DNA of 11,055 nucleotides. Origin: Candidatus Micrarchaeota archaeon. Lineage in GTDB: Archaea > Micrarchaeota > Micrarchaeia > Anstonellales > Bilamarchaeaceae. Of this stretch, positions 1-11,055 are shown one piece after another. A model generated the notes under the pieces. It made no database searches, was not told where the DNA came from, and saw nothing but the letters and a program-made list of their open reading frames with translations. The position numbers and the translations under genes were made by a program. The first letter of the stretch is position 1. Every line of letters starts with the position of its first letter. The DNA lies in contig JBBITJ010000022.1 of assembly GCA_037440825.1 (NCBI GenBank), positions 1 through 11,055 of the forward strand. Direction: 5' to 3'.

Positions 1-534
1 AGGAAGGAGATAGACTTCTGCCTCGCCAACGCGATAAAGCCGATGGAGCTCATAAAGCCCGATTGGGCGCAGAAAGGGAAGTTCCCGCAGTTCCCGCACT
101 GGACGATAAACCAGTGCAGGAAGAAGGAAAAGGCGTACGTGAGGTTCTGGATGAAGGAAATAGGGCTGGACACCATAATCGCATTCGCGAACTCCGCTGC
201 CGAGGTCTCGCCCAGGCAGGCGATCGAGGCTATCGAGAAATGCGCGCGCGAATACAAGCACGCAGGCGTGCAGGCGTTCTACTACATACCGGAATGCTAC
301 GTGCTGGCTGCGATGGCCCTTGCGTACAGGAGGTTCAAGGAGATGAAGCTCAGGAGCTTCGCAGGCAGGGCGCTCCACGCCATGGACCTGGCGCGATTCA
401 AGTCCGGGGATCCGCTGTACATCCCCGCATACAAGGAAGTGATGGAAAATGCCCCTGCTGCGAGAGAGAAAGCTGCCCGTGCGAAGACGCTCTATTTCTC
501 CGAAGTGGTGAGGGATGCGGAAAGCTCGGTTTGA
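1..534 (+). CDS. Hypothetical protein, probably 5'-truncated by the window edge
   Basis: Frame is open from base 1 (RKEIDFCLANAIKP-MELIKPDW...) to TGA at 532-534. Codon usage resembles the housekeeping genes. Ala-rich, helical-looking, no recognised motif. Confidence 0.7.
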   Translation, partial: RKEIDFCLANAIKPMELIKPDWAQKGKFPQFPHWTINQCRKKEKAYVRFWMKEIGLDTIIAFANSAAEVSPRQAIEAIEKCAREYKHAGVQAFYYIPECYVLAAMALAYRRFKEMKLRSFAGRALHAMDLARFKSGDPLYIPAYKEVMENAPAAREKAARAKTLYFSEVVRDAESSV

Positions 535-540
535 TATAGA

Positions 541-613
541 TAGCCCCAACCGGATTCGAACCGGTGTCACAAGGTCCAAAGCCTCGTATCCTTGACCGCT
601 AGACGATAGGGCT
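541..613 (-). tRNA. tRNA-Gln (anticodon TTG), 73 nt, no intron, CCA not encoded
   Basis: Minus strand AGCCCTA...TGGGGCT-A acceptor stem (A1-T72, typical of archaeal Gln). Anticodon arm CGAGG-CTTTGGA-CCTTG; T arm ACCGG-TTCGAAT-CCGGT. Confidence 0.95.
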
Positions 614-647
614 AGCTCACGCTATTCTTTCTTTTTCCAATTTTTAA

Positions 648-2117
648 TTAGTATTGCCTCGCAGCGTAAACATGCACTTTCGCGGGCTTGCCGCAGTTCA
701 CGCACTTCTCGCCATGCGGAACATCGGAGCTCTCGAATTCGCATTTTTCCGAATTGAAGAACGTGAAGACCGTTCCGCGGATGTCGCACGCGTGCTTCTC
801 CTTGAGCTCTTTCGCGCACTTCTCTCCGTCCATCCTTTCGCTGCAGAACGGTATCTTGACTATCTTCCCTTCATCTATCTTCTTCGCCATGTCCTCGCAG
901 GTCTTGGCAGAGTCCAGGCTCTTGAGGAACCTCTCCGATGCCTTCGCAGCGAGCCGCGCGCCCAGTTTTACTCCTGCATCCGCAATTGCCTTCTCCACGT
1001 CCGCGAGCTTCACGTTCTCCTTCTTCCCTTCGTCGCGCACAGCTAGCACCACGCTTCCTGAATCCATATCCCTTTCCCCTATTTCTATCCTTACCGGAAC
1101 GCCGCGCTGCTCCCAGTGGTTGAACTTGAATCCAGGGCTCACGTCCCGCGTATCGAGGTGCACGCGCGCTATTTTCCCGATTCTCTTCTCCAGCTCCTTC
1201 GCAGCTGAAAGCACCTTCTCCTCATTCCCTTTCCTGGTTATGGGTATTATCACGACCTGGATGGGCGCAGCTTCATATGGAATCACCATCCCCTTGTTGT
1301 CTCCGTGCACTGCCACCATCGCCGCATAAATCCTGTTCACTCCCGGGCCGTAGCACGTCTGCCACGCGAGCCGGGATTCGTTCTTCGCGTCCGTGTATTT
1401 TATCCCGTACGCCTTGGAGAAATGCTGGCCGAGGAGGTGCGTGCTCGCGACCTGCAGTACCCTTCCGTCAGGCATCAGAGTGTCGGCTGCAAACGTGTTG
1501 TCAGCGCCGGCGAACTTGTCCCATTGCGGCCTCTTGAACATAATGAAAGGCACTCCGAGCTTTTCCCAAATCACCTTCTTCGCCATCGAAGCGTCCTCCT
1601 CCACCTGCTTCTCAGCCTCCTTCGGAGTGGCGAAAACGTCGTGCGCCTCTATCCACAAAAACTCGCGCCCGCGTATGAACGGCTTCGTGGCCTTGGTCTC
1701 GTGCCTCCATACCCACCCCTTCTGGTATATCTTTATGGGAAGGTCGGAAAGCCCGTTCACCCACAGTGCGTACATCGGGTAAATGCTCGCTTCTCCTGTG
1801 GGCTTGAGCGCGTACCTCTCCTCCAGCTTCTTGTCCCCTGCCTCGGTCACCCAGAGCACTTCAGGAATGAACCCTTCCACATGCTCCTTCTCCGCGCCGA
1901 AAGATTTTTCATGGATGAGCGAAGGGAAGAAAGCGGGCTGGTGCGCCGTCTTTTCCATTTCAATATCGTAAAACTTGTAAATCTGGTCTATGCTCTTCAT
2001 GGCCCAGGGCATTATCACTATGAAGCCCTTGATGTTGTATCGGAGGTCGCACAGCTCCGCCTCCTTTATTATCCTATTATACCACTCAGAGAAGTTCCCG
2101 TATTTGTCTATGTTCAT
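648..2117 (-). CDS. proS: Proline--tRNA ligase, archaeal/eukaryote-like type
   Basis: N-terminal FSEWY, LKPTGE, motif 2 WRHETKATKPFIRGREFLWIEAH, motif 3 QTCYG...R, anticodon-binding domain (PGFKFNHWEQRGVPVRIEIG), C-terminal CVNC Zn site and terminal Tyr (ARQY). Confidence 0.97.
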   Translation of the reverse strand: MNIDKYGNFSEWYNRIIKEAELCDLRYNIKGFIVIMPWAMKSIDQIYKFYDIEMEKTAHQPAFFPSLIHEKSFGAEKEHVEGFIPEVLWVTEAGDKKLEERYALKPTGEASIYPMYALWVNGLSDLPIKIYQKGWVWRHETKATKPFIRGREFLWIEAHDVFATPKEAEKQVEEDASMAKKVIWEKLGVPFIMFKRPQWDKFAGADNTFAADTLMPDGRVLQVASTHLLGQHFSKAYGIKYTDAKNESRLAWQTCYGPGVNRIYAAMVAVHGDNKGMVIPYEAAPIQVVIIPITRKGNEEKVLSAAKELEKRIGKIARVHLDTRDVSPGFKFNHWEQRGVPVRIEIGERDMDSGSVVLAVRDEGKKENVKLADVEKAIADAGVKLGARLAAKASERFLKSLDSAKTCEDMAKKIDEGKIVKIPFCSERMDGEKCAKELKEKHACDIRGTVFTFFNSEKCEFESSDVPHGEKCVNCGKPAKVHVYAARQY

Positions 2118-2217
2118 AAGCGAAACCCAAGCATAGGATGTGGAAAAATGAATAAAAACAGAGTGGGAGCCGCCTGAGCCCGGAATCCGAAACCCAAGAC
2201 TGGAAACCGGCGGTCGG

Positions 2218-2748
2218 CTAGAGCCCGAGCGCGCCCAAGATGTCTACCACATCCAGGTTATGGAGCACCCCTCCTATCGCGCCCTTTATCACGAACGAGA
2301 CCGCCACCACCACTCCTGCCATCATGAGTGCGACAGCCACGTTGCCTTTCCTCAGCTCCTGCATCTCGCTCACGCCCATAGTCATGAAGTCCAGCACCCT
2401 TACGGATATCGCTATTGCTATCATGGAAACTATGACGCTTATGAGCAGGTTCAGCACGCCGACAACGAGCGCTATGAAGATTATGGTGACGCTGGCATTG
2501 GGCGTCACGAGCCTCGTGACGCTCGCGACCCCGCTTTCCACCAGCAGGGCGAGTGACAGTATCACTCCAACCAAAAGTATGCCCACTGCAGCGTTGCCTG
2601 CGTTGAGCTCCTTCACGAGATCTATGTTATGGTAAGTAAGCCTCGCGAACATCTTGAACGCGACGAATATGGTGCCCATAGACAGGCCTATTCCGAGGAC
2701 AAGCTGCACCAGCGAAACCGCGAGCTGCATGCCCACGTCGGTTGCCAT
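2218..2748 (-). CDS. DUF350-like membrane protein with two tandem repeat units (4 predicted TM segments)
   Basis: Two copies of the EL..GN.AV motif (ELNAGNAAVGILL; ELRKGNVAVALMM), each between hydrophobic segments. GGTGA RBS upstream of ATG 2748. Confidence 0.75.
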   Translation of the reverse strand: MATDVGMQLAVSLVQLVLGIGLSMGTIFVAFKMFARLTYHNIDLVKELNAGNAAVGILLVGVILSLALLVESGVASVTRLVTPNASVTIIFIALVVGVLNLLISVIVSMIAIAISVRVLDFMTMGVSEMQELRKGNVAVALMMAGVVVAVSFVIKGAIGGVLHNLDVVDILGALGL

Positions 2749-2826
2749 CTCAAATCACCGCTCTTACTTCAAAAACCATTTATTTAAATTTATGTGCGCG
2801 TTCCCTTTCTCCGCCAGCCCCTCTTT

Positions 2827-2833
2827 TTTTAAA
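2827..2833 (+). promoter_or_regulatory. Putative TATA box of purM
   Basis: TTTTAAA ends 21 nt before ATG 2855, consistent with a leaderless archaeal transcript. Confidence 0.55.
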
Positions 2834-2854
2834 CGATTGGCGCCAATACCCCTC

Positions 2855-3829
2855 ATGGCAAAATCCTATTCCGAAGCAGGGGTGGACCTCACCAAAGTGA
2901 AGTCCATCCAGAATCACATAAACGCCGCGATCTTCGCAGGCAAGAAGGGCGCCCTGGTGGGGCACTACGCAGGCCTGGTGGATTTCGCAGGCAGGAAGCT
3001 GGCGATGCACACCGACGGCGTGGGCAGCAAGGTGCTCGTCGCGCAGGACATGGAAAAATACGACACCGTAGGCATCGACGCGATCGCCATGAACGTGAAC
3101 GACCTCGTGTGCGTTGGCGCGCTGCCTATCGCCGGAGTGGATTACATCGCGCTCGCGAAAGAGGATGATTTCCTCGTCGCCGAGCTCCTGAAGGGGCTCA
3201 TAGCTGGCGCGCAGGAAAGCGGAATAGACATCGTCGGAGGCGAGACCGCGATAATGCCAGACGTCATCAAAGGCGGCGCGAGGCCCTTCGATCTCGCATT
3301 TACGGTAATAGGGGAAGTCAAGGAGCTGGTGACCGGCGACGCGATAAAGCCCGGAGACACTATAATCGGGCTCGAAAGCTCAGGCCTGCACAGCAACGGC
3401 TTCACGCTCGCGAGGAAAGTGCTGGACGTGAAGAAGTGGGGCAGGGCGATGCTCGAGCCCACCCGCATCTACGTGAAGCCTGTGCTGGAGATGATAGGAA
3501 GCTGCCGCGTGAACGGCATAGCCCACATTACAGGCGGCGCGTTCTCCAAGCTCACGAGGCTCAGCAAAAAGCACGGCTTCCTCCTCAACCGCATGCCAGA
3601 GCCCTCGCCGCTATTCAAGGCGCTCTACGATGAGGTGAAGGACGACCGCGAGATGCACCGCACGTTCAACATGGGCGTGGGCATGTGCATAATCGCGGAC
3701 AGGAAATGCGAGGAGCGCATCCTCGACATGGCCAAGAGGCACAAGGTCAACGCCTCCATAATCGGGGAGATAACTCCGGAAGCAGGCGTGTGGCTCGAGA
3801 AGGACGGAAGGAAAATAAGGCTAGACTAA
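2855..3829 (+). CDS. purM: Phosphoribosylformylglycinamidine cyclo-ligase (AIR synthetase), 324 aa
   Basis: SYSEAGVD start, TDGVGSK, IAMNVND, GGETA, SSGLHSNG, LEPTRIYVKP, AHITGG, TFNMGVG. Start revised to ATG 2855 (MAKSYSEAGVD); the track's TTG 2654 extension overlaps the divergent gene. Confidence 0.96.
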   Translation: MAKSYSEAGVDLTKVKSIQNHINAAIFAGKKGALVGHYAGLVDFAGRKLAMHTDGVGSKVLVAQDMEKYDTVGIDAIAMNVNDLVCVGALPIAGVDYIALAKEDDFLVAELLKGLIAGAQESGIDIVGGETAIMPDVIKGGARPFDLAFTVIGEVKELVTGDAIKPGDTIIGLESSGLHSNGFTLARKVLDVKKWGRAMLEPTRIYVKPVLEMIGSCRVNGIAHITGGAFSKLTRLSKKHGFLLNRMPEPSPLFKALYDEVKDDREMHRTFNMGVGMCIIADRKCEERILDMAKRHKVNASIIGEITPEAGVWLEKDGRKIRLD

Positions 3830-3844
3830 TTCTTCATCCTCCTG

Positions 3845-3855
3845 TTTTTGTTTTT
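3845..3855 (+). terminator. Possible oligo-T terminator after purM
   Basis: TTTTTGTTTTT begins 16 nt after the purM stop. It could instead be the antisense of a Lys/Asn-rich minus-strand frame. Confidence 0.3.
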
Positions 3856-4047
3856 GCCGCGCGTCTGCCCGGATTTTGATTTTGCGGGGAAAGGCGCGAC
3901 CTGCCCCTTCTGCGTTTTGCTTTTCACGAAGTTCTCTATAGGGTTGTAGAACTCCTGAGCTGCCTGCTCATGCGGCCGAACAGCGCGAGCAGCCGGCTTC
4001 CTCGCGCTGAGGAACTCCGGCCATTGCAGCCCGCGTCAAAGGACCGC

Positions 4048-4326
4048 ATGAATTGCACGCTCGCCCTGATATTCGGCACGTATGCGATTATAGGCGGCTT
4101 CATAACATTCCCCATGGCAGGCATCCAGCCCCAGTTCCTGCGCATGCTCTGCGCCATGGTAGCGGCGTATTATGCATCCTGGTTCCTCGAACTGCTGCCT
4201 TCCAACCAGAAGCCGGAGGCACAAGCCAAGCAAGGGAAAATGGGAAGGAAGCCCGCGCCTGAAATCTTATCTAGAGTTTGTAGAGCCTCATCATCAGCGA
4301 GTTGCCTACTACGCTCACCGAGCTGA
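4048..4326 (+). CDS. Probable small two-TM membrane protein (alternative start 3970; 3' end uncertain)
   Basis: [23 protein letters not shown]...[20 protein letters not shown] has two hydrophobic segments and genome-like codons (ATA, TTC, GGC). The ORF overlaps the copA 3' end by 56 bp, so the end is doubtful. Confidence 0.45.
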
Positions 4327-6553
4327 ACGCCATCGCCGCCCCTGCGAGCACAGGATTTATCTCTATCCCGAAGCCGGCTAGCGCGCCCATCGCCACCGGA
4401 ATCCCGACCACGTTGTATATGAACGCCCAGAAAAGGTTCTGCCTTATCTTGTTCATCGTGTATTTTCCGAGCCGCACTGCCCTCGCCACGTCCCTGACGT
4501 CGCCCTTCACCAGCACCACGTCCCCGGTCTCTATCGCGACGTCCGTGCCGCTGCCTATCGCGATTCCGACATCAGCAGCCGCAAGCGCAGGCGCATCGTT
4601 TATGCCATCGCCTACGAACACGACCTTGCCTTTCTTCATGAGCTCTCGGACCTTCTCCTCCTTCTGGTGGGGCAGCACGTTCGCGATCACATTCACTATC
4701 CCTACTTCCTCGGCAACCGCCTTCGCGCTTCTCTCGTTATCCCCTGTTATCATGTAGGCTTCTATGCCCAGGGCCTTGAGCTTCGCCACCGCCTCCTTCG
4801 AGACGTCCTTTATCCTGTCTGAAATCGCCACGATTCCTATCGCTTCATCGCCTTTCGCGACTATCACCGTGGTCCTGCCCTTCGCCTCCAGGGCAGCCAG
4901 CTTCGCGCCTCCGGCAAACCGCACACCCTCCTTCCTCATGAATTTCTCATTCCCTACGCGCACAATGTCTTTTCCGGCAATCCCCTTCACCCCGAAACCC
5001 GGAATCGCGGAGAATTTCCCTACTTCGGAAAGCTTCAGCCTCTTAGCCTTCGCGTATTCAACTATCGCCTGCGCGAGTGGGTGCTCGCTCTTCCTTTCCA
5101 GGGAGGCTGCGAGGCGCATGACGCTCGAAGCCGTGCTTTTCCCTAGCGGCACGACCTCAGACACCGCAGGCTTCCCCTCGGTTATCGTCCCGGTCTTGTC
5201 GAAAACCGCGTATTTCGTGCTCTCGAGTACCTCAAGCGCCTCGGTCTTCTTCGCGAGTATGCCGTTCTTAGCGCCTATCCATGAGCTCATGACCACTGCA
5301 GTGGGCGTGGCGAGCCCGAGCGCGCACGGGCACGCGATCACGAGCACAGTTATGAAGTAAGTGAGTGATTTCTCGAATTCCGCGCCTGCGACGAAGTGCC
5401 AGTATGCGAACGAAAGCGCGGCAAGCAGCACGACAGCAGGCACGAAGTACGCCGAAATCGCGTCAGCGAGCTTCTGTATCTGCGGCTTGGAACCCTGTGC
5501 CTCCTCCACCAATTTTATTATCTGCGCGAGCATGGTGTCGCTTCCGACCTTCTCCGCCTTCATGCGGAAGCTTCCAGTCCTGTTTATCGTCGCTCCTATG
5601 GCCTTGTCCCCCTTCCCTTTCCTCACAGGTATCGGCTCCCCTGTTATCATGGATTCGTCTACGTGGCTCTCTCCTGAAACCACGATCCCGTCCACAGGTA
5701 TCTTCTCCCCGGGCCGGATTTCCAGCACGTCGCCCGGCTTCACATCGTCTATTGGGATTTCCAGCACCCTCCTGCCCTTCACTATTCGCGCTGTCTTGGG
5801 CGCGAGCGCTATGAGCGCCTTTATCGCCTCGCTCGTCTTTCCCTTAGTTATCGCCTCGAGCAGCTTGCCCAGCAGTATGAACGTGATCAGCAGGGCCGCA
5901 GTCTCGTAATACGTGTATCCTTTCACCCCGAAAAATGTGACCGCGACGCTGTACGCGTAAGCCGCCCCCACTCCTATCGTGACCAGCGAGTCCATGTTGG
6001 GCATGAGGTTGCGTATCGCCTTGGTGCCCTTCACGAAGAAATGCGAGCCCGCGAGCATCACGACGCTGGTGAGCACGAAGTGCGCATACATGCCGTACTG
6101 CTTGAGGATAGTTGGCGGCTCTATCCCGAGCATGTCCGGAAGCGCAAGGGCAAGCACGGGAATTGAGAACAGCAGCGCGGCGAGGAACCTCCTCTTGTAA
6201 TCCGCTATCTCCTTCTCGCGCTCCTCCTTCTCCCGGTCCGTCTTCGGGATGGAAATGCCGTGCTCATGGCCCATCGCCGCGTGCTCCTCGGCGGTCATCC
6301 CCATCATCCTGGTTCCGGGTTCCGCGCTCCGCGTTTCGCCGGCTTCCTTGATCACTTCGTACCCTATGTCCGAGATCTTCTTCTCGATTCCGTCCATCCC
6401 TATCTGCCCGGGCTCGAACTGGACGTACGCCTTGCCTGTAGCGTAATTCACGCTCGCCTCAGCGACGCCCTTTGTGCGCTTGAGGGCCTTCTCTATGCTG
6501 ATGGCGCAGCTCGCGCAGTCCATCCCCTTTATAATCAGAGTCTTCTTCTCCAT
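4271..6553 (-). CDS. copA: Cu(I)/Ag(I)-exporting P1B-1 ATPase, 760 aa
   Basis: N-terminal HMA GMDCASC, TGEP actuator loop, [30 protein letters not shown] and MAFSS transmembrane Cu(I) ligands. Start taken as ATG 6553, preceded by GGGTG. Confidence 0.95.
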
Positions 6554-6610
6554 CCGGCCCACCCTGTCCGCTCCGGGTTTCCCTCTTCAGGTTTCCTGTT
6601 CAGCATTGCG

Positions 6611-6739
6611 CTATTCGCAGCATTCGCCCTTCTCTTCATGGCCGCAGCAGCAACAGCAGCACTCCTCTTCCTTCTCCTTCTTCCGCATTTCCTTCTTCCC
6701 GGTTCCCTTCTTCTTTCCGCTTCCAATCTTTTTCGCCAT
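6611..6739 (-). CDS. 42-aa Lys-rich/poly-Cys microprotein MAKKIGSGKKKGTGKKEMRKKEKEEECCCCCCGHEEKGECCE, candidate metallothionein-like or metallochaperone
   Basis: Hand translation: ATG 6739-6737 to TAG 6613-6611. AGGTGA RBS 5 nt upstream, genome-typical AAG/GAG/TGC codons, position between regulator and copA. Not listed in the ORF track. Confidence 0.8.
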   Translation of the reverse strand: MAKKIGSGKKKGTGKKEMRKKEKEEECCCCCCGHEEKGECCE

Positions 6740-6755
6740 ATCAATCACCTGCATC

Positions 6756-7181
6756 CTATTCGCACTCCGAGTGCTCCGCGCAGCTTTCGCAGCAGAAATA
6801 ATGCCTCTTACCCCCGCACTCGCGCACGTACGGATTCGCGTACACCACGCAGTCGCAATGCTCGCACTCCTTCAGCTTGTTGGCGAGCACCGCCTCCACT
6901 ATCGAGTCGGCCTTCTCGAGCATGCGCCTCAGCGCCGTCCTGCCCTTCTCGGTGAGTGCGTATACCTTCTTGTCCCTCGCGCCCGTGGAGACGACCTTCA
7001 CGTGCCCCGCGTACCTCATCTTCGCCAAGAGCGGGTATATCTGACCCGCGCTCGGCTTTTTGCCGAGCATGAACCCTATCTCGTGAATTATCTCGTAGCC
7101 GCTCCTGCTCCTCTTGCTCAGAAGTATGAGCGCCTGCATCTTCGTGAATCCTCCGAATCCGTCCTCCGCCTTCTTTGCCAT
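6756..7181 (-). CDS. PadR-family winged-HTH regulator with C-terminal TRASH-type metal-binding domain, 141 aa
   Basis: PadR motifs SGYEII, SAGQIYPLL, KKVYALTEKG. C-terminus CEHC-x20-CCESC fits TRASH C-x(19-22)-C-x3-C. Start revised to ATG 7181 (TATA 21 nt upstream). Confidence 0.88.
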   Translation of the reverse strand: MAKKAEDGFGGFTKMQALILLSKRSRSGYEIIHEIGFMLGKKPSAGQIYPLLAKMRYAGHVKVVSTGARDKKVYALTEKGRTALRRMLEKADSIVEAVLANKLKECEHCDCVVYANPYVRECGGKRHYFCCESCAEHSECE

Positions 7182-7202
7182 GCGCACTAATCTCACAAAT
7201 CC

Positions 7203-7228
7203 TATATAAACATATCTTTTTTAGATAT
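7203..7228 (-). promoter_or_regulatory. TATA box (TTTATATA, 7210-7203) plus adjacent ATATCT-N5-AGATAT palindrome (7212-7228) of the copper operon
   Basis: Read directly from the 50-nt AT-rich spacer. The TATA ends 21 nt before the regulator ATG, and the inverted repeat covers the BRE position. Confidence 0.65.
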
Positions 7229-7231
7229 ATG

Positions 7232-7807
7232 CTAGATCAGCGTCCGCTCCAGCAGCGCCACCGCTATCACCGAGGGCAGTATCTCCTGCGGCTCCAGGTT
7301 TATCCAGTATACGTTCCAGCCGTTGACCCTGGCGGTCCACTGCGCGACCTGGCGGTACGCCTTGTTTATCTGGTTCTGCGGCGTGGCCCGCCACACCAGC
7401 TTGTAGTAGTAATCCACTATCTCCGCCATCATCGCCTTTCCCAGGCCGTTTCCCTGGTGCTCCTTGGCGACCACGAATTTGTCCAGGTACGGGATTCCGG
7501 CGATCTGCTTCATCACCGCGAGCCCCTCGTAATCCGGGTAATGGAATATCCCTATTATGTCGCCGTTGCCGAAATACCCGTCCACGAGCCGCTTCCCGAA
7601 CGCCTCCTCTATTATGGCCTTCATTCTTTCCTTGTCTGCGCCCTCCGCGTCCGCCTTGATTATCCGCTTGCCGTCCGCGTGCGCCGCGCCCATCAGCCCC
7701 TCGCCGAGGCATTTCTCGAATGCGAACCCGCCCCTCAGCACCTGCTCTGCCTTGGGCACGTATATCACGCCCTTCTTAGTGGCGGCATGGATCGCATTGG
7801 CCTGCAT
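7232..7807 (-). CDS. Stand-alone GNAT acetyltransferase resembling the NAT (DUF619) domain of vertebrate-like N-acetylglutamate synthase
   Basis: IEEAFGKRL..GYF, Y.GLAV, PYLDKFVV..EHQGNGLG (acetyl-CoA loop), LVWRATPQNQINKAY and W.VYW are colinear with vertebrate/Xanthomonas-type NAGS NAT-domain motifs. No amino-acid-kinase domain. Confidence 0.78.
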   Translation of the reverse strand: MQANAIHAATKKGVIYVPKAEQVLRGGFAFEKCLGEGLMGAAHADGKRIIKADAEGADKERMKAIIEEAFGKRLVDGYFGNGDIIGIFHYPDYEGLAVMKQIAGIPYLDKFVVAKEHQGNGLGKAMMAEIVDYYYKLVWRATPQNQINKAYRQVAQWTARVNGWNVYWINLEPQEILPSVIAVALLERTLI

Positions 7808-7830
7808 GATATTGTTGGAGCGGAAAACGC

Positions 7831-7838
7831 TATTTAAA
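7831..7838 (-). promoter_or_regulatory. Putative TATA box of the acetyltransferase gene
   Basis: TTTAAATA on the minus strand ends 23 nt before ATG 7807. Confidence 0.55.
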
Positions 7839-7889
7839 TTTGAAGCGCATTTGCATCAAAAATAGCAGATTTGTTTCAAATGGAATAAT

Positions 7890-7900
7890 AAGAAAAAATA
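7890..7900 (-). terminator. Oligo-T terminator after tRNA-Ser
   Basis: TATTTTTTCTT directly follows the discriminator base. Confidence 0.5.
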
Positions 7901-8000
7901 CGCCGAGGGCAGGATTTGAACCTGCAATCCCGTGAGGGATCAGTTTTCCCAGCTCGAGATTATTCGAGACTGACGCACTACCGGATTATGCGACCTCGGC
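7901..8000 (-). tRNA. tRNA-Ser (anticodon CGA) with a 17-nt intron at canonical position 37/38 (7962-7946)
   Basis: Acceptor GCCGAGG/CCTCGGC-G (G73). Anticodon stem TCAGT/ACTGA with loop CT-CGA-A[TAATCTCGAGCTGGGAA]A, long variable arm TCCC-TCAC-GGGA, T arm GCAGG-TTCAAAT-CCTGC. Confidence 0.92.
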
Positions 8001-8025
8001 ATGAGCATCGCGAATGCCGAGGGCC

Positions 8026-8047
8026 TTTTATCGAAGCGTCGATAAAA
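8026..8047. repeat. Perfect 9-bp inverted repeat TTTTATCGA-AGCG-TCGATAAAA in the divergent tRNA-Ser/tpiA spacer
   Basis: Read directly from the sequence; function unknown. Confidence 0.7.
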
Positions 8048-8076
8048 TGCGATCTCGACAAGTAGAGTTATTACTG

Positions 8077-8084
8077 TTTTATAT
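8077..8084 (+). promoter_or_regulatory. Putative TATA box of tpiA
   Basis: TTTTATAT ends 23 nt before ATG 8108. Confidence 0.55.
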
Positions 8085-8107
8085 TGCTTACTAACTTAAA
8101 TATTTTC

Positions 8108-8758
8108 ATGATAGTCCTGAACCTGAAAACGTACCCGGCGAGCCTTGAAAAGGCTCTGGATTTCGTCGAAATAGCCAAGGACGTCTCGAAAGAGACCGGG
8201 CTGCGCATCCCAGTTGCGGTGCCGTGCATCCACCTCAAGGACGCGGCCAAGCACCACAAGGACTCTTTCGCGCAACACGTGGATGACAGCAAACCCGGCG
8301 CGTTCACGGGCTCCATGCCCGCCGAGGCGCTCAAGGAAGCCAAGGCAGCGGGCTCCCTGCTCAACCATTCCGAAAAAAAGGTCCCGTTCGAGAGGATAAA
8401 GCTCGCAGTGGAAAGGATGAACGACCTCAAGCTGGAAACGATAATCTGCGCCGAAAGCCAGGAAGAGGTGCTCAAGATAGGGCGCCTGAACGCGAAATTC
8501 ATAGCGATAGAGCCCCCAGAGCTCATAGGCAGCGGCATCTCGGTCTCCAACGCCAAGCCCGAAGTGATACGGAACACCGTGGAGACGATAGCGACGATAA
8601 ACGGCGAGATGCAGGTGCTCTGCGGCGCAGGCATAGGGACGAAGGAGGACGTGAAAAAGAGCCTTGAGCTGGGCGCAAACGGAGTCCTGCTCGCCTCCGC
8701 ATTCGTGAATGCGAAGAGCCCCAAGGAGTTCCTGCGCTCGCTCGCATCCGCTTTCTAG
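8108..8758 (+). CDS. tpiA: Triosephosphate isomerase, archaeal type, 216 aa
   Basis: NLKTY, AQHVD, GAFTGS, LNHSE (catalytic His), AIEPPELIGSG (catalytic Glu), LCGAGI, GVLLAS. Start revised to ATG 8108. Confidence 0.97.
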   Translation: MIVLNLKTYPASLEKALDFVEIAKDVSKETGLRIPVAVPCIHLKDAAKHHKDSFAQHVDDSKPGAFTGSMPAEALKEAKAAGSLLNHSEKKVPFERIKLAVERMNDLKLETIICAESQEEVLKIGRLNAKFIAIEPPELIGSGISVSNAKPEVIRNTVETIATINGEMQVLCGAGIGTKEDVKKSLELGANGVLLASAFVNAKSPKEFLRSLASAF

Positions 8759-9903
8759 GGCTGCTTCCGGTTCTTGAGCACGGATTCGTAGAATGCGATC
8801 ATGTCCCTGGCGCATTCCGCCAATTCGTATTTCTTCACAGCCGCAACCGCGTTCTTCGAGAGCCGCTCCTTGTTCTCTATCGCAGCTATTATCTTCTCCG
8901 AGAAATCCCCTGCTTCGGAGAAATAGTACCCTGTCTCGCCGTCAGCCACGAACTCCGCCGGTGCGCTGTCCTTCGGAACCACGACCGGGGTGCCCGTTGC
9001 CATGGCCTCAAGCACCACGAGCCCCTGCGTGTCGAAGAAAGAAGGGAACGCGAACACGTCCGCCGCCTTGTACAGGGCGGGCAGCTCGGCGTCAGCCACG
9101 AATCCCGCGAACACGAAGCTGTCCGAAAGCCCGCGGCTTTTCACCATGTCCTTGTAATACTGTTCGGCAGGTCCCTTGCCTCCGATCACGAATTTGGCAT
9201 TCGGCATCTTGTTCACTACTTTCTGCGCAGCGTCTATGAGCAGGGCGAGGTTCTTCTCGACCACAAGCCTTCCGACGAAAAGCACCATCGGCCCCTCTAT
9301 GCCGTACTTCTTCCTCACGAATTCGCACTCCACCTTGGGATGGAAGTTCCTCAAATCCAGCCCTGCCGGCTTCACCACGATGTTCCTTATTCCCTGCTTC
9401 TCCAATATGGAGCTGGCGAAGTTGCTGGGCGCTATGACCTTGTCGAAATTCGAGTAGTACCAGCGCAGGTATTTCCAGGCCACCGACTCGAACAGTTTCT
9501 TCAAATCCTCCTTCTTGGTTATGTAGTGCATGCCTTCGGAAACCATGGTGTGGAACGAAGCTATCGCAGGCACGCCAATCCTCTTGGCCGACTGGAAAGC
9601 CGCTATCCCGGTTGTCGCTATTCCGTGCGAGTGCACTATGTCCGGCTTTATCTCCTTTATCATGTTCGTCGCAGATATGAAAGGGAAGAGCGCCACCCTG
9701 TAGTCCGGGTAGGGCTTGAATGCGGTGGAGCTGAAATAGTGCACGTGCTGGTCCTTGTTTTCGTCTTTCTGCTTCTTCGTGCCGGGAGCGAACACGTAGA
9801 CTTCGTGCCCCATCTCCTCGAACATGCGTTTGTAGTTTGTGATGTAGGTGACCACGCCGTCTGTGTTTGGCAGGTAAGTATCCGTAAAGAATGCGATTTT
9901 CAT
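8755..9903 (-). CDS. GT-B fold family 4 glycosyltransferase (resembles the lipid monoglycosyltransferase-like subgroup)
   Basis: MKIAFFTDTYLPNTDGV, DIVHSH, SFHT, FVGRLVVEKN, FAFPS..DTQGLVVLEAMATGTPVV. Stop overlaps the tpiA stop in CTAG. Confidence 0.9.
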   Translation of the reverse strand: MKIAFFTDTYLPNTDGVVTYITNYKRMFEEMGHEVYVFAPGTKKQKDENKDQHVHYFSSTAFKPYPDYRVALFPFISATNMIKEIKPDIVHSHGIATTGIAAFQSAKRIGVPAIASFHTMVSEGMHYITKKEDLKKLFESVAWKYLRWYYSNFDKVIAPSNFASSILEKQGIRNIVVKPAGLDLRNFHPKVECEFVRKKYGIEGPMVLFVGRLVVEKNLALLIDAAQKVVNKMPNAKFVIGGKGPAEQYYKDMVKSRGLSDSFVFAGFVADAELPALYKAADVFAFPSFFDTQGLVVLEAMATGTPVVVPKDSAPAEFVADGETGYYFSEAGDFSEKIIAAIENKERLSKNAVAAVKKYELAECARDMIAFYESVLKNRKQP

Positions 9904-9918
9904 TCAATTGCCTCGAAC

Positions 9919-10752
9919 CTAGTCCTTGAGCGCATCCATGAAATCCACTTCCGAAACCGAAGACGGTATTGTGTTGGACACGAATATGTAGTCGCTGAGC
10001 TGGCCCAGCCGCCTTAGCGAGTCCTTGAGGAAGAATCCGTGCGTAGCAGCAAGCGCTATCTTGCCCGCGCCGTTCTTCCTCAGGTTCTCTATCGCCTTCA
10101 CCATGGTCGAGCCCGTGGATATCATATCGTCTATTATCAGCATGTTCTTGCCCCCAACGTCGAAATTTATCTCCATTTTTTCTATATCTCTGTAAACTAT
10201 GTTTCCCTTCCCGTAGTCCCCGCGCACTTTCTTCATGGCCTTGCCTCCGCTCATGTAATTGGCACCTGCGTCCGGGCTTATTACCTCGAAATCATTTCCC
10301 AATCTCTTCCTCGCGTTCTCTATGAGCAGGTTGCTCAGGGTGATGTTCCGTATCTTCATACCTCCGTACTCGAATTCGCCTGCTTTCTTGAGGAAATGGC
10401 AGTCAAAAGTCGTGATGCGCGAGTAGCCCGCGTGCTTGAGCATGTCCATCACCACTTCCGCGCTCTTTACCTCACCTTCCAGCCAGGTCTTGTCCTGCCT
10501 GGAGTACGGGATGTAAGGCGCGACCAGTTCAACACTCCTTGCGCCCTTAATGGCCTTCGCAAGGAACACCGCCTGCATCAAAGAAGTATTTTGATTTGGG
10601 TAAAGCCTGTGGTAAACAACCACGTCTTTCCCTTCCAGCCGCCTGGCGTCAGGAACCCTTACGTAGCTGTCTCCGTCGGGAAACTCCTTCATTTCCACGT
10701 TCGGCGTGAGGATGTCGGAAAAATTAGGGGAAACTGCCCTTTCAGTTACCAT
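9919..10752 (-). CDS. prs: Ribose-phosphate pyrophosphokinase (PRPP synthetase), compact archaeal form, 277 aa
   Basis: FPDGD, PYIPYSRQDK, D-C-H, SPDAGA, IIDDMISTGSTM (PRPP-binding loop), ATHG, SNTIP. Start revised to ATG 10752 (TATA 20 nt upstream). Confidence 0.93.
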   Translation of the reverse strand: MVTERAVSPNFSDILTPNVEMKEFPDGDSYVRVPDARRLEGKDVVVYHRLYPNQNTSLMQAVFLAKAIKGARSVELVAPYIPYSRQDKTWLEGEVKSAEVVMDMLKHAGYSRITTFDCHFLKKAGEFEYGGMKIRNITLSNLLIENARKRLGNDFEVISPDAGANYMSGGKAMKKVRGDYGKGNIVYRDIEKMEINFDVGGKNMLIIDDMISTGSTMVKAIENLRKNGAGKIALAATHGFFLKDSLRRLGQLSDYIFVSNTIPSSVSEVDFMDALKD

Positions 10753-10772
10753 AAGAGCAATTCTCGCAAAAA

Positions 10773-10780
10773 TATTAAAA
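10773..10780 (-). promoter_or_regulatory. Putative TATA box of prs
   Basis: TTTTAATA on the minus strand ends 20 nt before ATG 10752. Confidence 0.5.
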
Positions 10781-10809
10781 GCGCAGCTTTCGCAGCGCAA
10801 TCCGCCGAT

Positions 10810-11022
10810 CTATGCGGTGGGAAGCTCGAACATGCTCTTGCTGTTCCTCTCCCCTTCGCCGCCGAGGTGGAGGATCTCTCCCTCTCCACTCCTCTTTATT
10901 TTGTCGCAGCGTTCCCCTACGCAGATATGCTCAGGCTCAGGCTTCTTCCCGCCAAGCTGGATCGGCTTAACTTCTTTGCATCCGCCTTTGCCGCACTCTT
11001 TCTTAACAGTCTTAGGATCCAC
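10810..11022 (-). CDS. 70-aa hypothetical protein with two C-x4-C motifs
   Basis: GTG start preceded by strong AAGGAGGGGTG RBS, TAG stop, K/E/G-rich. The frame is also open to the window edge, so a longer N-terminus cannot be excluded. Confidence 0.65.
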   Translation of the reverse strand: MDPKTVKKECGKGGCKEVKPIQLGGKKPEPEHICVGERCDKIKRSGEGEILHLGGEGERNSKSMFELPTA

Positions 11023-11055
11023 AGTTCCACCCCTCCTTGGTTTATTTGTGTTTTT

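Follow-up and report, generated by a model that had tools for sequence, protein, structure and literature searches.

A PadR-TRASH regulator and a poly-cysteine micropeptide in a candidate copper-efflux operon of a Micrarchaeota archaeon

The contig JBBITJ010000022.1 of a Candidatus Micrarchaeota archaeon (assembly GCA_037440825.1; positions 1 to 11,055, the whole 11,055-nt stretch analyzed, hereafter the window) carries on its minus strand the genes of a PadR-type regulator with a cysteine-rich tail, of a poly-cysteine micropeptide and of a CopA ATPase. It is quite probable that these three genes form a copper-efflux operon composed of a repressor that Cu(I) releases, a buffer or chaperone resembling metallothioneins, and an exporter. 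Functionally, as judged from its sequence, the locus is an archaeal cop operon. The comparisons reported below indicate that the regulator family is solid and that the micropeptide, found in three genomes, is the unusual part. The source genome, that of a tiny symbiotic archaeon, has a size of 875 kb and is 95.6% complete.

An earlier note on this DNA had described one TATA promoter with an adjacent palindrome ahead of three co-oriented genes, separated by 16 and 57 nt, with the ribosome-binding-site-like motifs AGGTGA and GGGTG in front of the second and third genes. All these elements are present, the two distances are exact, and the last motif extends to GGGTGGG. In the direction of transcription, a 17-bp palindrome read from the sequence, ATATC-TAAAAAA-GATAT (7212-7228, strandless), forms a candidate operator. 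It is followed by the TATA box TTTATATA (7203-7210, minus strand, as are all the following features) and by the regulator gene (6756-7181; 141 amino acids (aa) from ATG 7181, stop codon at 6756-6758). A Shine-Dalgarno-like AGGTGA (6745-6750) is located 5 nt ahead of ATG 6739 of a small open reading frame (6611-6754; hereafter the micro-ORF), which encodes 42 aa from this ATG or 47 aa from ATG 6754 and stops at 6611-6613. Finally, a second Shine-Dalgarno-like sequence, GGGTGGG (6558-6564), precedes by 4 nt the ATG 6553 of copA (4271-6553; 760 aa). The spacers are at 6740-6755 (padR/micro-ORF) and 6554-6610 (micro-ORF/copA).

The PadR-TRASH regulator and its linkage to copA

The regulator is built of a PadR winged helix (residues ~15-90), a helix of the dimerization type (78-99) and a C-terminal cysteine domain. 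Its PadR domain is recognized by Pfam (PF03551, 46.8 bits for a cut-off of 27, E 2.9e-12, residues 23-90 of the 146-aa form), as it is in 13/13 family members, and no other helix-turn-helix family, including Lrp/AsnC, matched the regulator in Pfam at E<=0.01. When compared with solved structures, the family profile retrieves 30 chains at E<=0.01, nearly all from the PadR family. An AlphaFold2 (AF2) model of the regulator (predicted local distance difference test score, pLDDT, 84.6) contains the helix 78-99, and its top Foldseek matches are RosR, TA0346, LmrR and Rv3488 (E 8e-6 to 3e-4). As modeled, the protein would possess the C-terminal helix of the kind used for dimerization in the small PadR subfamily. 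The proposal of the earlier note that a PadR domain stands in place of the Lrp/AsnC DNA-binding domain agrees with the Pfam match, with the lack of a Lrp/AsnC match and with the rank of PadR structures in Foldseek.

The last 40 residues carry the six cysteines of the regulator, arranged as C106-x2-C109-x-C111 ... C130-C131-x2-C134. TRASH domains are represented by SMART TRASH and by the Pfam families PF08394, PF24273 and PF04945 (YHS). The TRASH cysteine motif, set out by Ettema et al. in 2003, reportedly reads C-X2-C-X19-22-C-X3-C; a C-X2-C-X20-C-X3-C spacing is contained in the tail (C106-x2-C109-x20-C130-x3-C134). In tail numbering, the 47 aligned sequences all have C6, C9, C11, C30, C31 and C34, and the same six cysteines are also invariant among the 13 homologues found with a word index. 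In a single family member (L017, the same as L209, G136:C103), the third cysteine of CxxCxC is an alanine (CAHCGA), and this extra cysteine is therefore not strictly essential. The Pfam model TRASH_HVO_1752_C (PF24273) is matched at E<=0.01 by 8/13 family members (best E 4.1e-6), and two homologues bear the PadR and PF24273 domains together in a precomputed annotation. The window's tail also gives weak matches to Metallothio_Pro (E 0.03) and to Ta0938. Searched against the PDB, the profile of the 47 tails finds Ta0938 (0.004), the MYM5 TRASH finger (0.15) and L24e/Rlp24 (0.9). With an AF2 model of the isolated 41-aa tail domain (pLDDT 82.0), the 'TRASH domain of MYM-type protein 5' comes first in Foldseek, ahead of many L24e/Rlp24 chains (TM-score on the query, TMq, 0.6-0.7; root-mean-square deviation ~1.6). 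We read the tail as a TRASH-like domain of a divergent subtype, with weak support at the level of the fold.

The word-index search gave 13 homologues of the regulator, with 37-65% identity. An exhaustive profile search among 1.84 billion representatives gave 47 clusters (50% identity) at E<=1e-30; roughly 60-70 of the matches listed cover the whole profile. Atlas clusters of PadR proteins of 136-142 aa are almost wholly archaeal. Linkage with copA, set beforehand as the test by which the proposal could be refuted, was examined in several sets of loci. A copA gene is present at 16/16 full-length loci from genome contigs (L003-L018), the sources being Micrarchaeota, Hadarchaeota, Aenigmatarchaeota, Hydrothermarchaeales and two unclassified archaea. 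The regulator and copA run in the same direction, as in the window, at two of these loci, and diverge at the other 14. In a search of the phylum (401 genomes; 1.5-kb flanks), copA was found at 25/30 best loci, a set that takes in the window itself and one duplicate, and at 16/18 further loci. Longer flanks at the misses of these two sets recovered copA 1.6 and 2.1 kb downstream in two cases, and none within 6.8 kb in a third. Taken together, a copA homologue lies within the examined flank at 57/62 distinct full-length loci (two duplicates removed), in at least four archaeal phyla. These counts speak for the proposal and identify the regulator as a member of a real archaeal family conserved next to copA. 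When metagenome contigs were searched with the close subfamily, only partial relatives of PadR came out, and no further full-length locus. In a tree of the PadR proteins, the clade of the window's genus (window, L003, L004, L085) groups with regulators of Aenigmatarchaeota and Hadarchaeota, away from those of its own family (g4, g14; L195-L198), the deep forks being unresolved; this is only a hint at a possible lateral movement of the operon.

The CopA protein scores 620.7 bits with TIGR01511 (cut-off 397, E 2.6e-186) and 414.8 bits with IB2_Cd. Its Pfam domains are E1-E2_ATPase, Hydrolase and one N-terminal HMA (CASC; 51.2 bits for a cut-off of 24.8). A His/Met-rich linker is also present, and the CPC, YN and MxxSS transmembrane motifs can be read in the translation as ACPCALG, IYN and MAFSS. 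These three motifs are the Cu(I)/Ag(I) signature. From its Pfam and NCBIfam scores and its motifs, CopA is thus identified as a P1B-1 ATPase predicted to export Cu(I)/Ag(I).

The metal served by the operon is deduced from the same features. Several thiophilic metals are bound by TRASH, HMA and poly-Cys sites, the tail has the weak matches to Metallothio_Pro and Ta0938 given above, and the pump is also scored by NCBIfam Cd/Zn models. It could accordingly be argued that the system is not meant for copper but for a different soft metal (Ag, Cd, Zn, Hg) or for thiol/redox stress. However, the best pump model, TIGR01511, is Cu-specific and stands well above IB2_Cd, the pump bears the Cu(I)/Ag(I) signature, and the partner genes of the relatives encode YHS proteins and a CopA fronted by YHS. 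A function other than in copper handling appears very improbable.

Promoter and palindromic operator

The TATA box lies ~25 nt upstream of ATG 7181. By the spacing rule that relates archaeal TATA boxes to the start of transcription, this distance suggests a leaderless operon mRNA. GTG 7196, called by the ORF finder as the start of the regulator, is less likely than ATG 7181, on the grounds of the distance to TATA and of the alignment of homologues. The right half of the palindrome overlaps the position expected for the B recognition element (BRE) beside TATA. The TATA box reads TTTAAATA in three relatives, and the promoter block ACATATCTAAAAAAGATATGTTTA(A/T)ATA hardly varies among four genomes, in which the PadR proteins share only 58-61% identity with that of the window.

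This arrangement extends well beyond the close relatives. The sequence TATC-N7-GATA occurs at most 120 nt upstream of the regulator start at 47/62 distinct family loci, and its longer form ATATC-N7-GATAT, over the same distance, at 41/62. As a background, the rest of these loci (354,446 nt) contains TATC-N7-GATA five times and ATATC-N7-GATAT twice. Several of the 15 loci without an exact TATC-N7-GATA have versions with one mismatch. In the whole 875-kb genome, ATATC-N7-GATAT is present in two copies, one of which is intergenic. The second copy (G000:C3:13016-13032; L226 1501-1517) lies inside an open reading frame (ORF) for a 336-aa membrane protein and was set aside as due to chance. The conservation of the block and the twofold occurrence in the genome make us consider the layout as more than chance. 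With one intergenic copy genome-wide, the predicted regulon is this operon alone. We propose that ATATC-N7-GATAT is the binding site of a PadR-TRASH dimer. Its half-site centers are 12 bp apart, as are those of the PadR site ATGT-N8-ACAT.

Inspection by eye of the GC-rich 57-nt spacer before copA revealed no TATA-like sequence; copA therefore most likely relies on the upstream promoter. A search of sequencing runs turned up no RNA run containing this DNA, and a single DNA run, which may be its source. A scan for sigma-70 promoters and intrinsic terminators gave nothing of use, these models not applying to archaea.

The position of the operator bears on the polarity of the regulation. Within the PadR family, PadR itself and LmrR, for example, are repressors that a ligand releases. 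A repressor position is seen in a large Micrarchaeota clade (L086-L111), where the palindrome begins inside or right after TATA, covers the start site and ends a few bases before the ATG. In the window's clade and in divergent loci, however, the palindrome is found just upstream of TATA, where it could be used by an archaeal activator. As for the TRASH regulators already characterized, a published account describes CopR as an activator in two species, S. solfataricus and P. furiosus, and as a repressor in T. onnurineus (PMC7830388). This raises the possibility that PadR-TRASH remains bound to the DNA, like CopR of Saccharolobus and Pyrococcus, and works as a copper-dependent activator or in a dual manner. 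We regard this as unlikely, and favor a repressor released by Cu(I).

The micropeptide and its neighborhood

The 42-aa peptide, MAKKIGSGKKKGT...CCCCCCGHEEKGECCE, has a Lys-rich N-terminus, and its last 16 residues contain eight cysteines, six of them consecutive, and one histidine. The window's copy has 8/42 Cys (19%), one His and no Phe, Trp or Tyr, the Cys/His cluster being flanked by Glu; the copy in L003 has two Tyr. By its size, Cys content and few aromatics, the peptide fits the operational class of metallothioneins. It matched no described metallothionein family, no Pfam match being obtained at E<=10 and no NCBIfam match at E<=1. A word-index search of 5.8 billion protein clusters gave no candidate homologue, the window's own peptide being missing there too, and the ESM Atlas gave no usable match. 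Without metal, the peptide is probably disordered. As a speculation, its Lys-rich half might hold it at an anionic membrane or on a nucleic acid.

The same slot, start and frame are kept in two other genomes, with the peptides MTKKSGTGKKKGTEKK...CCCCDGNDCECEYHGKKNGCCCCE (L003, which is the G031 contig, the peptides of L003 and G031 being identical) and MAQKTGTGKKKGTSAK...CCCCCCGHEEEKKDDGCCKGGKCDC (L004, which is G420, with exactly matching coordinates). In the window, the first in-frame ATG of the micro-ORF, at 6754, is 1 nt past the padR stop; it overlaps this stop as ATGA in L003 and follows it at +2 nt in L004. In L004, GGTGG occupies the site matching AGGTGA of the window. As all three genomes have the first ATG at or beside the padR stop, the peptide may be 47 aa long and translationally coupled. 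The second ATG comes 3-5 codons after the first in all three genomes, and the conserved sequence begins there.

Several lines of evidence indicate that this frame is coding. Insertions and deletions among the three micro-ORFs are of 9 and 36 nt, multiples of 3, and the differences fall most often at the third codon position (22 against 12 and 13 at the other two; 17 against 9 and 8; 25 against 16 and 13). On a codon alignment built from the protein alignment of this same frame, the ratios of nonsynonymous to synonymous differences per site (pN/pS, Nei-Gojobori) are 0.37, 0.26 and 0.52, as compared with 0.65-1.43 in the two shifted frames. An alternative Arg/Ala-rich frame, also open in all three genomes, was rejected; its pN/pS values are within this latter range and its translations have no conserved start codon. 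The micro-ORF is thus predicted to be a genus-restricted coding gene under purifying selection, and the small Cys-rich peptide that had been proposed between the regulator and copA is borne out as a conserved coding gene, one with no family match.

A six-frame search of the 401 phylum genomes with a hidden Markov model (HMM) found the peptide in G000, the window's genome, and G031 only. Within the family, it was found in 3/8 genomes of the genus and in 0/91 genomes of other genera. Fifteen further weak HMM matches (E 0.001-0.09) were discarded as noise; in all 10 examined, the conserved N-terminus was missing and neither copA nor PadR was encoded within ~1.5 kb. The operon is carried in the genus by G000, G031, G282 and G420, and 3/4 of these have the peptide. 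In G282, the copA start is ~30 nt after the regulator stop and aligns with the micro-ORF start. In the PadR tree, G282 groups with G420, and the window with G031, both pairings being moderately supported (89/86 and 85/82). If this topology is correct, a single loss of the peptide took place, in G282. In the same-family relatives L195-L198, the regulator abuts or overlaps copA, which makes the peptide look like an insertion that dates from the ancestor of the genus-level clade.

In other Micrarchaeota, the slot between regulator and pump is occupied by a YHS protein of 46-60 aa (YHS 3.2e-17), and CopA has an N-terminal YHS domain in place of HMA. This slot corresponds to that of the chaperone in described archaeal cop clusters (PMC7830388). 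More generally, most relatives have an ordinary YHS/TRASH chaperone in the middle slot, the poly-Cys peptide being found in this genus only. These data can be set against the idea that translation of the micro-ORF serves only for coupling or spacing, or, as in a regulatory upstream ORF, to adjust the flow of ribosomes to copA, its peptide having no function. In line with such an idea, the first ATG is adjacent to the padR stop in each of the three genomes, the micro-ORF is built of simple AAG and TGC runs that could have arisen by slippage, and the peptide is genus-restricted and missing from G282 of the same genus, where the copA start takes the place of its own. However, pN/pS is 0.26-0.52 in the frame of the peptide and close to 1 in the other two, synonymous changes (ACC/ACT/ACG, GGA/GGG, TGC/TGT) leave the N-terminal M-x-x-K-x-G-x-GKKKGT and the Cys run intact, the stop comes shortly after the last Cys (at most two residues) in all three genomes, and true metal-binding proteins fill the same slot in sister lineages. 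A mere device of translation is quite improbable, and we retain a metal-binding peptide as the more satisfying reading.

Other small proteins were noticed at the loci of relatives. A Cys protein of 46-50 aa (MTEYKCxICGLHY...C..WCS.H..C type) is encoded between PadR-TRASH and copA in many Micrarchaeota (L089:2456-2599 (+); also L090, L092, L095, L098, L102, L104, L207 and others). With no Pfam match at E<=0.1, it may represent another unannotated family of small metal proteins. A Gly/Tyr/Met-rich predicted membrane protein of 100-130 aa is encoded directly after the regulator (L089:1934-2308 (+); L091, L092, L101-L105, L202), its sole Pfam match, DUF3561, being at chance level (E 0.07). In a Hadarchaeota metagenome-assembled genome, a 73-aa Cys-rich protein (...CCVIC...) is encoded downstream of PadR-TRASH (L011:5737-5958 (+)) and has only chance-level zinc-ribbon matches in Pfam.

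The gene content of the window is otherwise housekeeping (prolyl-tRNA synthetase (ProRS), PurM, triosephosphate isomerase (TIM), a glycosyltransferase, phosphoribosyl pyrophosphate (PRPP) synthase, tRNA-Gln). An N-acetyltransferase gene (7232-7807) has its stop directly before the palindrome on the minus strand, and a gene for a DUF350 membrane protein with two repeats (2218-2748, minus strand) is located between proS and purM. A 118-aa ORF (3970-4326 (+)), convergent with copA and overlapping its last 56 nt, has a hydrophobic middle and no Pfam match. A small Lys/Gly/Cys-rich ORF at 10810-11055 (-), which runs off the window end (...ECGKGGCKEVKP...HICVGERCDK...), also has no Pfam match.

Proposed mechanism and relation to known copper systems

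The identities of the genes, the linkage of the regulator to copA, the conservation of the operator and the purifying selection on the micropeptide frame come directly from the comparisons above. A mechanism can be proposed for the operon as follows, in which the metal specificity, the repressor polarity, the co-transcription and the part played by the peptide are inferred. At low copper, a PadR-TRASH dimer bound to the 17-bp palindrome beside TATA would keep TBP/TFB off the sole promoter. Binding of Cu(I), possibly Ag(I), to the six-Cys TRASH-like tail would then loosen the dimer from the DNA, and a leaderless tricistronic mRNA, padR-micropeptide-copA, would be made. With the micropeptide start at or next to the regulator stop, the peptide would be made together with the sensor. 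Its eight cysteines and its histidine, flanked by acidic residues, would bind Cu(I) as a thiolate cluster, and the peptide would either buffer Cu(I) or pass it to the HMA domain or the entry site of CopA, which would pump it out.

It should be noted that several observations weigh against this mechanism. The repressor polarity is a guess from the position of the operator, because the characterized TRASH regulators differ in polarity. The window's tail stays under the Pfam cut-off of 27 (Arc_trans_TRASH 19.0 bits, TRASH_HVO_1752_C 14.5 bits), all Foldseek E-values of the 41-aa tail domain are at or above 0.28, and alignment by hhalign of the tail with bona fide YHS domains of the sister operons has a probability of 20.6%, with the cysteines in register. 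No copA was found at 5/62 family loci; at three of these the contig ends ~450 nt (L087, L091) or ~2.1 kb (L202) after the regulator gene, and at two there is no copA within 6.8 kb downstream (L112) or within ~3.5 kb (L201). The coding evidence for the peptide comes from three sequences, the codon alignment was constructed in a way that favors the peptide's frame, and both other frames are open because this purine-rich stretch has few T. Finally, G282 (83% complete) has the operon without the peptide, which is consequently dispensable.

More tentatively, and with rather less than even confidence, we propose that the poly-Cys peptide is a young gene, born in the regulator-pump spacer of a single Micrarchaeota genus, possibly by expansion of AAG/TGC repeats, and serving as an archaeal Cu(I) metallothionein or chaperone made in step with the sensor. 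In this proposal, archaea would possess, with PadR-TRASH, a second class of copper sensors, one that spans phyla and has a defined operator of 17 bp.

The small PadR regulators LmrR, RosR (VNG0258), TA0346 and Rv3488 resemble the regulator by their winged helix and C-terminal helix; the operator here is palindromic. Members of this subfamily have phenolic acids and drugs as ligands, oxidative stress being the signal in the case of RosR. Unlike the present regulator, none of the solved PadR-family members matched has a Cys-rich metal domain. As for the micropeptide, metallothioneins and small Cu(I) buffers include the bacterial SmtA/BmtA type and the mycobacterial MymT. The window's peptide is likewise tiny, Cys-rich and devoid of aromatics, with one His among the cysteines, and is encoded with a metal exporter. 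It differs from them by its six consecutive cysteines, its long poly-lysine-like N-terminus, its restriction to one archaeal genus and the lack of sequence similarity to Pfam or NCBIfam families.

The published account of archaeal copper systems describes CopR as an association of Lrp/AsnC with TRASH, and the known cop clusters as having the order regulator-chaperone-pump (PMC7830388). The present locus has the same gene order and logic as the clusters so described, made of CopR/CopT (SSO2652, PF0739, TON_0836), CopM/CopZ and CopA. Both combine a regulator whose C-terminus is a TRASH sensor with a P1B ATPase and, optionally, with a small protein that binds metal. The regulator gene adjoins copA in a co-oriented or divergent manner, and the regulator controls a shared promoter region. 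However, the DNA-binding domain is PadR here and Lrp/AsnC in CopR, as judged from Pfam domains and from these published descriptions of CopR. A PadR-type dimer on one short palindrome is expected here, whereas CopR is a DNA-wrapping octamer, and the tail has two additional invariant cysteines (CxxCxC...CCxxC). In place of the CopM/CopZ chaperones, a poly-Cys peptide that is neither TRASH nor HMA is found. On these comparisons, the regulator is not a member of the CopR family and has only the TRASH-type sensor in common with it. The same paper reports that the top copper-induced gene of P. furiosus (290-fold) is pf0738.1n, a small lineage-restricted hypothetical gene beside the cop locus (PMC7830388). 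With respect to the tail, the related Pfam family TRASH_HVO_1752_C is named after HVO_1752 of Haloferax volcanii, whose locus is described as having 'no obvious functional role' (PMC8223754).

In the full-text literature searched, which leaves subscription journals aside, no description was found of PadR paired with a TRASH or YHS domain, or of PadR with copA in archaeal metal sensing; within this literature, the view of the earlier note that the architecture had not been characterized stands. Its idea of an 'independently assembled copper module' is true of the DNA-binding domain and of the slot peptide, which are different; the module is not wholly independent, as it corresponds to a domain swap on a shared TRASH sensor. 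Similarly, the accessory slots are non-canonical here, with a PadR regulator and a poly-Cys peptide, but most relatives keep a YHS/TRASH chaperone.

Copper control in archaea has so far been studied only through the Lrp-type CopR, and the present family uses another DNA-binding scaffold with the same kind of sensor. It is encoded next to copper pumps in at least four phyla. With its short and well-defined operator, the regulon becomes predictable from sequence in organisms that cannot be grown, and operator and sensor could be used as a compact copper-responsive switch. Unannotated genes of ~40 codons, which gene callers miss, can fill the chaperone slot of metal operons. The micropeptide offers a tractable case of recent gene origin; if its reading as a young gene is true, a comparison of close genomes would here make it possible to trace how a metal-binding protein was born, which is rarely the case.

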